Source of the DNA: a virus
Taxonomy: Duplodnaviria; Heunggongvirae; Uroviricota; Caudoviricetes
IMG/VR virus record: IMGVR_UViG_2711768034_000003
Direction: 5' to 3' (one strand)
DNA length: 37,294 nt
The notes beneath the pieces are model-generated. The model saw only the letters and a program-made list of their open reading frames with translations. It was not told the origin of the DNA and made no database searches. The position numbers and the translations under genes were made by a program. Shown piece after piece: positions 20,130-24,024 of this stretch (position 1 is its first letter; every line of letters begins with the position of its first letter).

Positions 20130-23100
20130 ATGGCAGTAAAGATTTCAGGTGTACTGAAAGACGGTGCAGGTAAACCGGTACAGAACTGTACAATCCAGCT
20201 GAAAGCAAAACGTAACAGCACCACGGTGGTGGCGAACACGGTGGCCTCAGAAAATCCGGATGAAGCCGGGCGTTACAGCATGGACGTTGAGTACGGTCAG
20301 TACAGCGTTATTCTGTTGGTGGAAGGCTTCCCGCCATCGCATGCCGGGACCATCACCGTGTATGAAGACTCACAACCGGGTACGCTGAATGATTTTCTCG
20401 GTGCCATGACGGAGGATGATGTCCGTCCGGAGGCACTGCGCCGCTTTGAACTGATGGTGGAAGAGGTGGCGCGTAACGCGTCCGCAGTGGCACAGAACAC
20501 GGCAGCCGCGAAGAAGTCAGCCAGCGATGCCGGCACATCAGCCCGTGAGGCGGCAACCCGTGCGACTGATGCTGCAGGCTCAGCACGTGCAGCCAGCACG
20601 TCAGCCGGACAGGCCGCGTCGTCGGCTCAGTCAGCGTCTTCCAGCGCAGGAACGGCATCAACAAAGGCCACTGAAGCATCAAAAAGTGCTGCCGCCGCAG
20701 AGTCTTCAAAAAGCGCGGCAGCCACCAGTGCCGGTGCAGCGAAAACGTCGGAAATGAATGCCGCAGCATCACAAAAATCTGCGGCCACATCTGCATCCAC
20801 CGCGACCACGAAAGCGTCAGAAGCTGCCACCTCAGCCCGGGATGCGTCGGCTTCAAAAGTGGCGGCAAAATCATCAGAAACGAGCGCTGCCTCGAGCGCC
20901 GGCAGTGCAGCTTCCTCGGCAACGGCAGCAGGAAATTCCGCGAAGGCTGCAAAAACGTCTGAGACGAATGCGGATAACAGCGCACAGGCGGCAGCAGACT
21001 CACAAACTGCATCGGCAAACTCCGCGACAGCAGCCAAAAAATCAGAAACCAACGCGAAAAATAGTGAGGCAGCAGCAAAGGTCAGCGAAACCAACGCTAA
21101 AGCGTCAGAGAACAAGGCGAAAGAATATCTCGACAAGGTCGGGGGACTCGTCAGCCCGATGACGCAATACGATTGGCCCGTTGTTACTGGTAATGAGTCT
21201 TTTTACATAAAGATCGCGAAACTTTCCGATCCCGGAAGCGGCAATTGCCATGTAACGCTAATGGTTACTAACGCTGGTAACTACGGCTCCCCTTACGGAA
21301 ACATTGACTTTATCGAGATCTCGGCGCGCGGTCTGCCTTCTTTGCTTAGTGCGGATAATGTTTCTCGTCATCTGAGTATACGCCGCTTAGGGTCAACCGG
21401 GCTGACCGATAACAACCAGATGCGTTACGGCCTGGTTAAAGGTGACGGCTTTATTGAGGTTTGGGCCTTCCAGCGCGCATTTATCAACGGCGCAAAGGTT
21501 GCGGTACTGGCGCAGACGGCACGCACGGAATTATACATTCCAGACGGATTTGTTAAGCAAACCGCCGCGCCTTCTGGATATGTTGAAAGCCCCGTTGTAA
21601 GGATTTACGACCAGGTAAACAAACCCAGCAAGGCAGATTTAGGTCTTTCCAATGCTATGCTTATAGGAGCCTTCGGTCTTGGCGGCAGCGGTGTTGGTTT
21701 GGATAATAAAATGACCGATCAGGAGCTACTACAAGAGCTAAGGGCGAAAGGTGGATGTTTCTGGAGGTCAGGAAAAGGAACAGGTAGCACAGCCACATTT
21801 TTCAGTCACGGATCTGGCATATTCTCTCGGTGTAGCGATACGTGGGCAGCGTTAAATATAGACTACGACAGTGGTAGGGTGAAGGTTTACGCTGGTAATG
21901 ACAGGAGACTTGATGATGGTACTTTTAACATCAATGAGCTATACGGAACCAGGCACAAACCATCGAAATCGGACGTTGGACTTGGCAACGTAACTAATGA
22001 TGCGCAGGTGAAAAAATCCGGCGATGTTATGTCAGGTGACTTGACGATCAATAAAGACACACCATCACTATTCCTTAGGGCAACTGGTGAAACAGGTGCT
22101 GCCGCTGTGCGGTTTTATACTGGCACTAACCAGGAGCGCGGCATAATCTATGCTGGTCCTAACACTGATTCGCTTGGCGAAGTTCGCATCAGGGCTAAAA
22201 ACGCAAAAGGTGTGTCGGGTGGTGATCTTATTGTTCGCCACGACGGGGTGGTTGAGGTTCAGAATCTCACAGCGGCTAAAAAAGTAAAAAGCGTAAACGC
22301 AGAGCTTGCAAACACATCAACTAACACGCTTGAGAACACGTTAAAAATCAGCGGTCAACAGCATACTCCGTTACTTTTAACGCGTACCGGTTATTCTGAA
22401 AACCTATCCATTGGTTTTAAGGTTGACAACCTTGATCAAAAATATCTCGGAATCAATGGCAGTGGAGATCTAGCTTTTGGTAAAAATACTGATCATAAAC
22501 AAAACAGCAGAGTAATTACACAAGCAATACTGGATAGCGGTGTGACGGTGGGCGGCAAAACAACATTTTCTGACCTTGCCACATTTAACGCAGGTATTGC
22601 GGGATCTATCAAGCCAGAAGAGCTTGACCAAAAGACTATTGATCTTAACGACCTAACCATCAAAGGCGAAAATAAAGGATCAGTCAAATACTATCAATGT
22701 AGGACTTCCGGCGGTGGCGCGAATATTACCAACAAACCTAACGGCGTAAGCGGTAACTTTTTGCTACGTGTAGAGTCACTTCGCAATAACACGGATGTAG
22801 ACTATATAAACGTACAAACCCTGGTTAGCGGCGACAAAGGACGCATGTATGTTCGTTTTGTTACTAATGGGAATTTTACAGCATGGAGCGAGCCTGTTGT
22901 TTCAGGATGGAATCAGGATGTAACCGTCAGGTCGTTAACCTCGACGACTCCATCAAAATTAGGTGGCGGGCGGATTGATGTGCTTGGAAGTACGTCAGAT
23001 TATGACAGCATGAATTGTACCGTGCGCGGTGTTGATAGCAGCGGAACTAATTCTGCGTGGTCAGTAGGCACATCAGTAGACACTGGCAAAACGTTGTATC

Positions 23101-23882
23101 TGAAAAACCACAGAACCAGTTCACAAGTGCTGATAAGTGGCGATACTGGATCTATTAAGCTACAAAATGGTAATGCAAACAAGGAGTTAGCGCTAACCGA
23201 AGATTCAGTTACCTCAAACGCTGACATTATCCTAAAAAATAGTGATGATGGTTCGCGTCTTCTTATAAGAAACTCAAACACTTCGGCGCAGTCGTGGAGT
23301 ATCAGGGCATGGGGTCAAAGCGGAAGGGAAAGCGTTTTTGAAATTGGTAACACCAAGCAATACATGTTTTACGCACAAGAAACGGCATCGGGTGGCAGAA
23401 ATTTTGACTTTAACGGTGATGTTACATGTAAGACACTATACCAAACTTCTGATCAAAGCCTTAAAGACAACATTAAGGTTATAGGTGACGCTACCGAATC
23501 CATCCGTAAAATGAATGGGTACACATACACGTTTAAGGACGACGGCCTGCCTTATGCTGGCGTTATTGCACAAGAAGTAATGGATGCGCTGCCTGAAGCG
23601 ATAGCGTTTACCACTCTTTACGGTAAAGAGCTACAGGGGCCAACAACTGACGGAAACGTGTTACGCGAAGAGATGAAGTGCCTTAGCGTTGACTATGCGG
23701 CGGTGACTGGTTTACTTGTTCAGGTCGCCCGTGAAACAGATGATCGCGTTACCGCGCTGGAAGAGGAAAACACAACGCTACGTGAAAATCTGGCAACAGC
23801 AGACACCCGGATCAGCACTCTGGAAAATCAGGTAAGCGAACTGGTTGCACTTGTCCGGCAGTTAACAGGAAGCGAACATTGA
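20130..23882 (+). CDS. stf: side tail fibre protein (Stf): lambda-like N-terminal anchor and Ala/Ser-rich repeat region fused to a non-lambda distal module with a C-terminal intramolecular chaperone (peptidase S74-like) domain
   Basis: N-terminus MAVKISGVLKDGAGKPVQNCTIQLKAKRNSTTV... and the A/S-rich repeats (about aa 130-330) match lambda Stf. From about nt 21120 the sequence diverges. C-terminus ...LYQTSDQSLKDNIKVIGDATESIRKMNGYTYTFKDDG... followed by a coiled-coil tail resembles the autocleaving chaperone domain of endosialidase/T5 L-shaped fibre type fibres. Confidence 0.85.
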   Translation: MAVKISGVLKDGAGKPVQNCTIQLKAKRNSTTVVANTVASENPDEAGRYSMDVEYGQYSVILLVEGFPPSHAGTITVYEDSQPGTLNDFLGAMTEDDVRPEALRRFELMVEEVARNASAVAQNTAAAKKSASDAGTSAREAATRATDAAGSARAASTSAGQAASSAQSASSSAGTASTKATEASKSAAAAESSKSAAATSAGAAKTSEMNAAASQKSAATSASTATTKASEAATSARDASASKVAAKSSETSAASSAGSAASSATAAGNSAKAAKTSETNADNSAQAAADSQTASANSATAAKKSETNAKNSEAAAKVSETNAKASENKAKEYLDKVGGLVSPMTQYDWPVVTGNESFYIKIAKLSDPGSGNCHVTLMVTNAGNYGSPYGNIDFIEISARGLPSLLSADNVSRHLSIRRLGSTGLTDNNQMRYGLVKGDGFIEVWAFQRAFINGAKVAVLAQTARTELYIPDGFVKQTAAPSGYVESPVVRIYDQVNKPSKADLGLSNAMLIGAFGLGGSGVGLDNKMTDQELLQELRAKGGCFWRSGKGTGSTATFFSHGSGIFSRCSDTWAALNIDYDSGRVKVYAGNDRRLDDGTFNINELYGTRHKPSKSDVGLGNVTNDAQVKKSGDVMSGDLTINKDTPSLFLRATGETGAAAVRFYTGTNQERGIIYAGPNTDSLGEVRIRAKNAKGVSGGDLIVRHDGVVEVQNLTAAKKVKSVNAELANTSTNTLENTLKISGQQHTPLLLTRTGYSENLSIGFKVDNLDQKYLGINGSGDLAFGKNTDHKQNSRVITQAILDSGVTVGGKTTFSDLATFNAGIAGSIKPEELDQKTIDLNDLTIKGENKGSVKYYQCRTSGGGANITNKPNGVSGNFLLRVESLRNNTDVDYINVQTLVSGDKGRMYVRFVTNGNFTAWSEPVVSGWNQDVTVRSLTSTTPSKLGGGRIDVLGSTSDYDSMNCTVRGVDSSGTNSAWSVGTSVDTGKTLYLKNHRTSSQVLISGDTGSIKLQNGNANKELALTEDSVTSNADIILKNSDDGSRLLIRNSNTSAQSWSIRAWGQSGRESVFEIGNTKQYMFYAQETASGGRNFDFNGDVTCKTLYQTSDQSLKDNIKVIGDATESIRKMNGYTYTFKDDGLPYAGVIAQEVMDALPEAIAFTTLYGKELQGPTTDGNVLREEMKCLSVDYAAVTGLLVQVARETDDRVTALEEENTTLRENLATADTRISTLENQVSELVALVRQLTGSEH

Positions 23883-23919
23883 TATCCTTCAAGCTCTGAA
23901 GGAGGCTGTTCCCGGTACG

Positions 23920-24024
23920 TTCAGACTGTTGTTGAGCTGGAAATCGCAACGGAGGAAGAGAAAGCGTTACTGGCCGCATGGAAAAAGTATCGGGTGTTGC
24001 TGAACCGTGTTGATACATCAACTA
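23920..24024 (+). pseudogene. tfa: 3' remnant of a tail fibre assembly (tfa) gene
   Basis: Plus-frame translation ...[32 protein letters not shown] matches the conserved C-terminus of lambda/E. coli Tfa proteins (…EIAT.EE...[25 protein letters not shown]), then diverges; no start codon or N-terminal part. Confidence 0.7.

Follow-up and report, generated by a model that had tools for sequence, protein, structure and literature searches.

Organization of the side tail fiber locus

The window, i.e., the whole stretch of 37,294 nucleotides of viral DNA that was analyzed, carries J, lom, and stf in that order, which is the position of the Stf locus in lambda. Upstream of stf, all head and tail genes up to and including J and lom are present as long open reading frames (ORFs). 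The following features were delineated at stf and in its 5′ part (coordinates are those of the window).

20092..20113, plus strand: terminator-like hairpin between lom and stf, with a 9-bp stem and a T-run, 17 nt before the stf start
20130..23882, plus strand: stf, the side tail fiber gene, an intact ORF of 1,250 codons plus TGA (3,753 nt uninterrupted)
20130..20531, plus strand: collar/anchor domain of the lambda Stf type (aa 1 to 134; Pfam PF08400, phage_tail_N, E = 1.1e-71)
20433..21134, plus strand: Ala/Ser-rich proximal coiled coil (about aa 102 to 335), with colinear homology to lambda DNA up to 20971

A GTG codon at 20124 is an alternative possible start for stf. Both peptide strings quoted in the original prediction were located inside the ORF. 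Terminators equivalent to the upstream hairpin are annotated in phages Ayreon and mEp460. The prediction had described the distal module of the fiber as new. This did not hold, as the exact protein is already in NCBI, in a protein class named S74 family peptidases, and Stf matches PHROG family phrog_6578 with an E value of 8e-289. In RefSeq, the name given to these proteins is “pyocin knob domain-containing S74 family peptidase,” and the accompanying stub is flagged as a tfa pseudogene. A search of the fiber against NCBIfam gave no meaningful match.

A lambda-type N-terminus is joined to a non-lambda distal module

The lambda Stf-like N-terminus that had been proposed was confirmed by the PF08400 match and by 74% identity to lambda orf-401 over aa 1 to 355 in blastp analyses. 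Strong colinear similarity to orf-401 ends near aa 280, and residues 281 to 335, which consist of the same type of Ala/Ser-rich repeats as in lambda, aligned with a gap and at low identity. At the DNA level, lambda homology is lost after 20971 and comes back only at 23920 to 24023. The GC content decreases from 0.55 to 0.63 at 20300 to 20900 to 0.39 to 0.50 in the distal part. The switch had been placed near 21120; non-lambda sequence of lower GC content does follow, but the DNA breakpoint is at 20971, approximately 150 nt further upstream, and 21120 corresponds to the end of the repeat-rich coiled coil. As anticipated, comparison with orf-401 and orf-314 showed the distal ~915 residues to be unrelated to lambda Stf, with no similarity detected between orf-314, the C-terminal half of lambda Stf, and the Stf of the window. 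The collar role of the N-terminal domain is taken from StfN of Ur-lambda (PMC12617516), whose proximal coiled coil comprises residues 102 to 393 (PMC12617516).

The fiber ends with an S74 chaperone and a predicted cleavage site

23445..23465, plus strand: predicted autoproteolytic site TSDQSLK, with the scissile bond T1106-S1107, D1108, and K1112
23448..23879, plus strand: S74 intramolecular chaperone domain (aa 1107 to 1250, 144 aa; PF13884)
23694..23867, plus strand: C-terminal coiled coil (about aa 1189 to 1246), part of the chaperone domain

Pfam family Peptidase_S74 (PF13884) was matched at aa 1107 to 1157 with 46.7 bits (cutoff, 22; E = 4e-12), at the extreme C-terminus of the 1,250-residue fiber. 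When PDB sequences were searched with the single sequence, S16 gp37 was the sole match, at the cleavage motif, and profiles were required to reach other PDB matches. With profiles, the chaperone matched S16 gp37 (6f45, E = 7e-10), the ICA domain of MyRF (7dc3, E = 1e-10), and a T5-type fiber (8hqz_d, E = 2.7e-7). The AF2 model of the segment containing the chaperone shows a helix at segment residues 330 to 387, with pLDDT values up to 96. In an alignment of 120 relatives, S1107, D1108, and K1112 are each at least 90% conserved. The cleavage site of T5 pb1 has been defined experimentally as Thr1263-Ser1264/Lys1269 (PMC4690869), and T1106-S1107/K1112 has the same Thr-Ser...Lys(+5) geometry; autocleavage at T1106-S1107 is predicted on the basis of this motif. 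The S74 intramolecular chaperone with its C-terminal coiled coil was thus substantiated by PF13884 and the conserved Ser/Lys pair.

The shaft and tip resemble non-enzymatic lateral fibers

21135..22709, plus strand: non-lambda shaft module (about aa 336 to 860), from identity to homologues and an AF2 model
22710..23447, plus strand: distal tip, a putative receptor-binding region (about aa 861 to 1106), from tblastn and profile searches
21650..23700, plus strand: hypervariable stretch, with 53 to 94% nucleotide identity per 150-nt window (mostly 55 to 85%) to the closest relatives

The shaft shares about 51% identity with the tail fiber of a Webervirus-type phage of Klebsiella and 35 to 40% with ‘L-shaped tail fiber’ proteins that large Klebsiella phages carry. 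For the tip, tblastn retrieved lateral fibers of T5-like, Drexlerviridae, and rV5-like phages at 33 to 44% identity, and the segment that directly precedes the predicted cleavage site shows a relationship to a domain of T4 gp34 (profile match to 5nxh, E = 3e-8). The distal part resembles non-enzymatic fibers from Webervirus-type phages of Klebsiella, from T5-like phages, and from Drexlerviridae. Separate small beta domains make up the AF2 model of aa 331 to 870. All structure models are monomers, with mean pLDDT values of 68 to 69, and fold searches with them gave mostly generic beta-sheet matches. Those to OspA-like single-layer sheets, porins, and Rhs shells were considered artefacts, because one chain of an intertwined trimer was folded alone, and were left uninterpreted. 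The first shaft domain matched T4 gp9 or galectin-type beta-sandwiches weakly (E = 0.02 to 0.06), and this similarity is not claimed.

The first S74 chaperones to be described were those of endosialidases, and the distal module might accordingly be an enzymatic tailspike or depolymerase that, like the endosialidase of K1F, degrades capsule or O-antigen and does not just bind it. The full-length profile also matched the Klebsiella phage depolymerases 7vz3 and 7lzj (E ~ 1e-18). However, those matches cover only the beginning of the profile (positions 4 to 190), ahead of the shaft, tip, and chaperone, and the closest characterized relatives of the fiber are non-enzymatic. The original prediction had also called for a search of the distal part for a beta-helix or depolymerase fold. 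None was found: Pfam shows no lyase, sialidase, or beta-helix family, a long beta-helix is absent from the AF2 models, which are of moderate confidence, and Foldseek with the model of aa 331 to 870 returned no PDB match at E ≤ 0.001. An enzymatic function is thus very unlikely.

Webervirus fibers with such a domain bind O-antigen without enzyme activity and undergo self-cleavage (PMC13463945), and T5 pb1 binds polymannose O-antigen (PMC4690869). By analogy with homologues at 33 to 51% identity, the receptor of the fiber described here is likely a surface polysaccharide, bound without enzymatic activity and most plausibly O-antigen.

Sliding identity of stf was computed against Ayreon, TA8571, and 1EC213. 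The flanks of the hypervariable stretch are mostly 93 to 100% identical to the closest relatives, whereas the receptor-binding allele at 21650 to 23700 is diverged and specific to the window. The top complete Escherichia coli genome reaches 85.7% identity over 21100 to 23900. The distal 920 residues show 75% amino acid identity to Ayreon and 94% to a Shigella flexneri protein.

A start-less tfa remnant and a deletion follow stf

23883..23918, plus strand: spacer from the stop codon of stf to the tfa remnant, common to all relatives examined
23919..24023, plus strand: tfa remnant, codons 147 to 181 of the 194 in lambda tfa, without a start codon and without the last 13 codons
24023..24024, no strand: junction left by a 142-bp deletion, as seen against E. 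coli 1EC213 in a multiple alignment
23921..24766, minus strand: convergent GIY-YIG gene of the PD-T4-3 type (PF22945, E = 2.8e-14; PADLOC PD-T4-3, E = 3.8e-135)

In tblastn analyses, lambda Tfa matched with codons 147 to 181 only (23919 to 24023, E = 5e-12), and no second tfa was detected elsewhere in the 37-kb window. A complete tfa ORF of ~194 codons is not present directly after the fiber gene; an intact adjacent copy, which would have spoken against the original prediction, was looked for and none lies in the window. That prediction had described a 3′ stub of tfa. What remains is indeed a start-less fragment, but it is not the 3′ end of the gene, the last 13 codons being gone as well. The remnant matches PHROG tail fiber assembly families, and its counterpart in RefSeq relatives carries a pseudogene annotation. 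We infer that the fiber is independent of Tfa.

The tfa fragment might itself be functional, as a small peptide, as an extension of Stf by stop-codon read-through, or as a cis element. It shares the reading frame of stf, is matched by PHROG families of short proteins, is preceded by AAGGAGG in the spacer, and has been kept beside the chaperone end in hundreds of genomes (see below). However, no start codon follows AAGGAGG in the spacer, the frame of the stub contains no ATG, GTG, or TTG before codon 38, and a shared frame is expected by chance in one case out of three; a coding role was rejected on these grounds. A read-through extension would be lost with the cleaved chaperone, the window has lost the last 13 codons of the stub with stf unaffected, and repeated recombination with full-length tfa also explains the conservation. 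A function of the fragment in any of these forms is highly improbable.

The 142-bp deletion removes the end of the stub, a terminator hairpin, and 10 codons at the end of the GIY-YIG gene, and it accounts for the missing 13 tfa codons. No terminator-like site was found after stf in the window. Through the deletion, the PD-T4-3 defense gene has become fused to the stub, whose antisense strand supplies the last ~34 codons of that gene, so that the product has 281 residues versus 257 for the 1EC213 copy. The loss of the stub 3′ end and terminator is unique to the window among the loci examined, and the undeleted 273-bp spacing was found in the best 12 of 198 genomes in which tfa and GIY-YIG sequences lie side by side. 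Downstream of stf lie an IS fragment, defense genes, and conjugation-gene fragments, not the usual lambda b-region and int. No integrase or immunity region is visible in the contig, and the prophage it contains may be defective.

The stf gene might therefore be a decaying remnant that no longer yields a functional fiber, the stub and the deletion reflecting general erosion of a defective prophage. The loss of the terminator, the damage to the neighboring gene, and the replacement of the b-region and int would fit this idea, and several relatives are marked as pseudogenes or split in RefSeq. In contrast, the 3,753-nt ORF is unbroken, and the dN/dS ratios relative to Ayreon are 0.08 to 0.35 across all segments (0.16 for the chaperone), well below 1 in each. 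The gene is thus under purifying selection, and the head and tail genes through lom have also been retained, making erosion an unlikely explanation.

The cassette is shared by phages and many E. coli prophages

In six loci, those of Ayreon, mEp460, PhiR70_1, and three E. coli prophages, tfa homology begins at tfa nucleotide 440. The three cultured phages have the same stf type and no annotated tfa gene. The segment comprising the chaperone end and stub is present in 803 of 5,426 complete E. coli genomes, and full-length tfa genes matching the stub are found in ~4,100 genomes. A scan of one genome per species yielded a single distant locus, in Escherichia ruysiae, and is a poor guide to taxonomic spread.

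The joining of lambda and S74 sequences could be imagined as a recent event specific to this strain, given the low identity of the receptor-binding stretch to its closest relatives and the lack of any complete E. coli genome above 85.7% over the distal module. However, identity to relatives is 93 to 100% per 150-nt window from 20451 to 21350, which spans the end of lambda homology, and the nucleotide 440 start is common to the three phages and three prophages. Together with the 803 genomes, these data refute a recent swap for the architecture, making it extremely improbable. The recombination put forward in the original prediction therefore stands as a cassette swap, but not as an event of this genome; the strain-specific part is an allelic exchange inside the cassette. 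The architecture is already known, as it is widespread among E. coli prophages, occurs in cultured phages, and has a name in RefSeq, Pfam, and PHROGs. Literature searches found no explicit description of a lambdoid side fiber with an endosialidase-type chaperone, or of a link between a tfa relic and an in-cis chaperone in lambdoid phages.

Experiments have shown that lambda recombines with defective prophages within stf/tfa homology (PMC3945230). A tentative idea, and one that we consider rather doubtful, is that the stub is more than neutral debris and, together with the invariant coiled-coil end of the chaperone, serves as the right-hand homology arm of the fiber cassette. Matching stf 5′ ends and tfa 3′ ends in nearly every E. 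coli genome would provide cassette partners, and Red-type recombinases could exchange Tfa-dependent and self-chaperoning tips in a single step. If so, the stub would persist because lineages that keep it can go on exchanging receptor specificities.

Discussion

Our preferred interpretation, to which we give a probability of about 80%, is that stf encodes a functional, naturally mosaic side tail fiber of a lambda-like prophage with an in-cis chaperone. The first ~335 residues comprise the lambda Stf collar, the presumed attachment to the tail tip, and the trimeric coiled coil of the proximal part. The other ~915 stand in for the hinge, T4 gp37-like distal rod, and Tfa-dependent tip of lambda, with a shaft and tip of the kind found in T5-like, Drexlerviridae/Webervirus, and rV5-like lateral fibers. 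The last 144 residues would nucleate trimerization and folding of the tip and then cut themselves off at T1106/S1107, with K1112 as the base, leaving a mature fiber of 1,106 residues. As folding would be handled in cis, the trans chaperone Tfa would not be needed. The original recombination, with its joint at tfa nucleotide 440, presumably cut the tfa gene short, and the untranslatable relic of the gene might still provide right-hand homology for later cassette exchange. The fiber would most likely mediate reversible primary adsorption to a surface polysaccharide without degrading it, with a specificity set by the diverged 21650 to 23700 stretch. Lambda plaque formation does not need side fibers, and the existence of viable phages with stf of this type is therefore no proof of its function.

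The window belongs to the family of Ayreon-type fibers, the pyocin knob S74 fibers of RefSeq. The fibers of Ayreon (MF807953), mEp460 (JQ182728), PhiR70_1 (PV340577), and vB_EcoS-640R1 have the same architecture, the stub starts at the same tfa nucleotide in the first three, and Ayreon, TA8571, and 1EC213 match the window at high identity in both the N- and C-terminal flanks. These relatives differ by another receptor-binding allele and, in the loci examined, by an undeleted stub 3′ end and terminator. Ur-lambda Stf has the same J-lom-stf locus, highly similar first ~280 residues, and presumably the same tail-tip attachment, but its hinge, gp37-like distal rod, and OmpC-binding tip are replaced in the window, and its Tfa chaperone is reduced there to the codon 147 to 181 fragment.

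Like T5 pb1, the Stf of the window would form long homotrimeric lateral fibers on a siphovirus tail, with a C-terminal S74 chaperone of ~133 to 144 residues, the Thr-Ser...Lys(+5) arrangement, and a coiled coil. T5 pb1 binds O-antigen without enzymatic activity, and it differs by its T5-type N-terminal attachment. Over the tip and chaperone, identity is 26 to 34% with T5-like fibers and 40 to 44% with Drexlerviridae and rV5-like ones; the profile match to the solved T5-type fiber 8hqz is confined to the chaperone, and similarity of the receptor-binding tip is low. The K1F endosialidase chaperone (PDB 3GW6), the founder of the S74 family, belongs to the same Pfam family and follows the same Ser/Lys autoproteolysis logic. 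However, it folds an enzymatic tailspike, whereas the window has no sialidase or beta-helix, and the fold-search match of the monomer model to 3gw6 is weak (E = 0.06). Finally, the cluster I receptor-binding proteins of Klebsiella Webervirus (PMC13463945) are likewise non-depolymerases with an auto-processing chaperone end. A Webervirus-type fiber is ~51% identical over aa 331 to 955 of Stf, but host genus, phage family, and N-terminal anchor differ, and the tip is not the homologous part.

As a discovery the locus carries little weight, and specialists would find little in it that is unexpected. Nevertheless, it has some practical value as a natural template for engineering lambda particles with helper-free fibers, and a distinct specificity, probably for O-antigen, may be determined by the diverged 21650 to 23700 stretch.

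Organization of the fiber locus

The window is the complete contig CXWS01000049.1 (assembly GCA_001268745.1; 37,294 bp), and its relatives are labeled E. coli at NCBI. The genes that frame the side tail fiber gene, stf, are as follows, with long ORFs occupying the head-gene position ahead of the tail genes.

Left 20 kb: lambda-like tail genes L, a K-like gene, I and J
After the tail genes and before stf: lom (PF06316, E 4e-128, Pfam)
20130-23882, plus strand: stf, a single unbroken ORF after lom (1250 aa)
23921-24766, minus strand: LEM-3-like GIY-YIG gene, PD-T4-3-type anti-phage defense (PADLOC, E 3.8e-135)

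Strong terminator-like hairpins are present 3′ of J (19417-19436) and of lom (20092-20113), the latter only 17 nt ahead of stf, and the annotations of the cultured phages Ayreon (MF807953) and mEp460 (JQ182728) have the same hairpin arrangement after J and lom. The stf gene is presumably expressed through late transcription with antitermination.

A lambda-like anchor joined to a non-lambda distal part

The stf product begins with MAVKISG, as does lambda Stf, and Pfam assigned its residues 1-134 to the prophage tail fiber N-terminal domain (E 1.1e-71). By blastp, lambda orf-401 is 74% identical across aa 1-355, the strong colinear match stopping at about aa 280 and the remainder being a gapped alignment of Ala/Ser-rich repeat type. 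The original prediction had the lambda Stf N terminus give way to a new module near 21120. The lambda-like part was borne out but the breakpoint was not, as DNA homology to lambda (87% identity over 20001-20971) ends at 20971. GC content falls from about 0.6 in the lambda-like part to 0.39-0.50 distally, in line with the lower GC reported for the distal module, and both peptide strings quoted in the prediction were found in the window. The Ur-lambda virion structure assigns residues 1-91 to the collar that docks at the tail tip and 102-393 to the proximal trimeric coiled coil (PMC12617516). The window therefore retains the collar for tail attachment and the greater part of the proximal rod; everything farther out is replaced.

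The predicted non-lambda module of about 900 aa corresponds to some 915 residues with no similarity to the C-terminal half of lambda Stf. tblastn searches against phage genomes showed that these residues are themselves a mosaic. Residues 331-955 are about 51% identical to the tail fiber of the Webervirus-type Klebsiella phage vB_Kpl_K50_evo17, whose gene adjoins that of a primase and has no chaperone gene downstream, and 35-40% identical to 'L-shaped tail fiber' proteins of large Klebsiella phages. Residues 865-1245 are 33-44% identical to lateral fibers of T5-like, Drexlerviridae (tonijn gene 23) and rV5-like phages, and a profile search with the C-terminal 391 residues matched a T4 gp34 domain (5nxh; E 3e-8) directly ahead of the predicted cleavage site.

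A beta-helix or depolymerase fold, proposed as a structural check, was not found. AlphaFold2 monomer models of aa 331-870 and 860-1250 (mean pLDDT of 68 and 69) are both strings of small beta domains that lack a long beta-helix. The model of the shaft (about aa 336-860) had zero Foldseek matches in the PDB at E<=0.001, and Pfam detected no lyase or sialidase domain in the fiber. On these grounds we read the distal part as a non-enzymatic fiber, bearing in mind that a monomer model of an intertwined trimer chain cannot be good.

The C terminus is an S74-type intramolecular chaperone

The S74-type chaperone proposed for the C terminus was confirmed by Pfam and by profile searches. Peptidase_S74 (PF13884) scored 46.7 bits at aa 1107-1157, above its curated cut-off of 22, and three solved S74-type domains were matched, those of the MyRF ICA domain (7dc3; E 1e-10), S16 gp37 (6f45; E 7e-10) and a T5-type fiber (8hqz_d; E 2.7e-7). 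When the fiber is aligned with 119 relatives (identities of 29-98%), S1107, D1108 and K1112 are each kept in at least 90% of the sequences. T5 pb1 is cleaved between Thr1263 and Ser1264, the serine is activated by Lys1269 and the S1264A mutant remains uncleaved (PMC4690869); the window's fiber has the same T-S-x4-K spacing.

tfa is reduced to a stub

Lambda Tfa gave one tblastn match in the entire contig, at 23919-24023, covering codons 147-181 of 194 (74% identity, E 5e-12), so that the check for an intact tfa elsewhere returned the stub alone. The prediction that the last 35 or so codons remain was right as to the 35-codon length but not as to the true 3′ end, since the last 13 codons are deleted. 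No ATG, GTG or TTG occurs in the frame of the stub ahead of position 23994, and the ORF list of the window has none there. The stub shares the reading frame of stf, and TGA read-through (23880-24071) would append 62 residues. This shared frame is probably a one-in-three coincidence, and any such extension would have no effect, being lost together with the cleaved chaperone. The left half of the stub is lambda-like in Ayreon but not in the window, a sequence difference that suggests that exchange inside the stub has gone on.

The replacement is shared and widespread

The replacement itself was upheld, but not its novelty, given the shared joint, its frequency among genomes and existing database entries. 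Lambda tfa homology starts at nucleotide 440 in Ayreon, mEp460, the cultured phage PhiR70_1 (PV340577) and the E. coli prophage loci TA8571, 1EC213 and ESY002, all six with fibers of 830 to 1252 residues. Identity of the window to Ayreon, TA8571 and 1EC213 lies mostly at 93-100% until about 21650 and once more from 23718 on; across the interval, in steps of 150 nt, it varies between 53% and 94%, with most values at 55-85%. Among 5426 complete E. coli genomes, 803 cover the final 324 nt (chaperone end and stub) to at least 80%; the distal module as a whole is covered in 287, at identities of at most 85.7%. Across the distal 920 aa, a partial NCBI protein (979 aa) is 100% identical and a Shigella flexneri protein 94%. 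RefSeq names such fibers 'pyocin knob domain-containing S74 family peptidase' or 'prophage tail fiber N-terminal domain-containing protein' and flags the stub as 'tail fiber assembly protein, incomplete, missing N-terminus'; the PHROG match is phrog_6578 (E 8e-289). RefSeq often splits the fiber into a 'partial' N-terminal domain protein and a 909-914-aa S74 peptidase (e.g., 1501-5259 of L010, a relative's locus). Undivided 1252-aa products are also on record, and the split looks like an annotation artifact. The lambda-to-S74 swap is both ancestral and common.

Matches to at least part of the locus, chiefly to the 5′ end of stf, occur in 5199 of the 5426 genomes, and matches to the tfa 3′ end in about 4100. 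The cassette is flanked by two stretches that nearly all E. coli genomes carry too. Lambda has been shown experimentally to recombine with defective prophages inside these same stf and tfa homologies (PMC3945230).

Features particular to the window

The receptor-binding allele of the window is diverged. In addition, 142 bp present in 1EC213 (6907-7048 of its locus, L003) are missing at 24023/24024. Lost through this deletion are the final 13 codons of tfa, the terminator hairpin and, in the convergent GIY-YIG gene, the final 10 codons; the undeleted spacing is found in all 12 best-matching complete genomes with this neighborhood. No terminator-like site occurs 3′ of stf in the window, and the PD-T4-3-type protein has 281 aa versus 257, its last 10 residues being swapped for about 34 from the antisense strand of the stub.

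Farther right, at 25582-26741, a very low-GC AraC-family regulator gene (about 33%) precedes an integrase-core (rve_3) fragment on the opposite strand, an arrangement that resembles imported cargo including the remnant of an IS. At 27397-30257, the gene for a GmrSD_N/NsnA-like protein (PADLOC NsnA, E 1e-58) overlaps that for a HEPN_MAE_28990 protein and is followed by a convergent C-5 cytosine methylase gene, a probable defense cargo downstream of the fiber. NikA-like and TrbL/VirB6-like genes at the right contig end (32337-35160) suggest a piece of a conjugative element. Neither a phage integrase nor an immunity region was recognized in the genes inspected rightward of stf, and the prophage could therefore be incomplete or disrupted.

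Selection and proposed function

In the comparison with Ayreon, dN/dS is lowest in the anchor and coiled coil (0.08-0.12), intermediate in the chaperone (0.16) and highest in the shaft and tip (about 0.3). Low values in every segment indicate purifying selection along the full length of the protein.

The observation and the reasoning of the original prediction are sound, and the fiber is of a routine lambdoid side tail fiber type that databases already annotate. Our literature search found no paper that connects the tfa relic with the in-cis chaperone, a link that follows directly from known S74 biology. Independence of the fiber from Tfa would likewise follow from established S74 fiber biology and is consistent with the absence of an annotated tfa from Ayreon, mEp460 and PhiR70_1, although phages can form plaques without side fibers.

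In the mechanism that we propose, the trimer would be anchored at the tail tip by its collar, as happens in Ur-lambda, and the C-terminal domain would nucleate folding of the tip (about aa 861-1106). Correct trimer formation would then trigger cleavage at T1106/S1107, and reversible glycan binding by the mature tip would speed adsorption before J meets its receptor. Our best guess for this glycan is O-antigen, by analogy with three fibers: Webervirus fibers carrying a domain of this kind have been demonstrated to cleave themselves and to bind, but not degrade, O-antigen (PMC13463945), T5 pb1 targets polymannose O-antigen (PMC4690869), and Ur-lambda's own side fibers apparently deal with the O16 antigen (PMC11990801).
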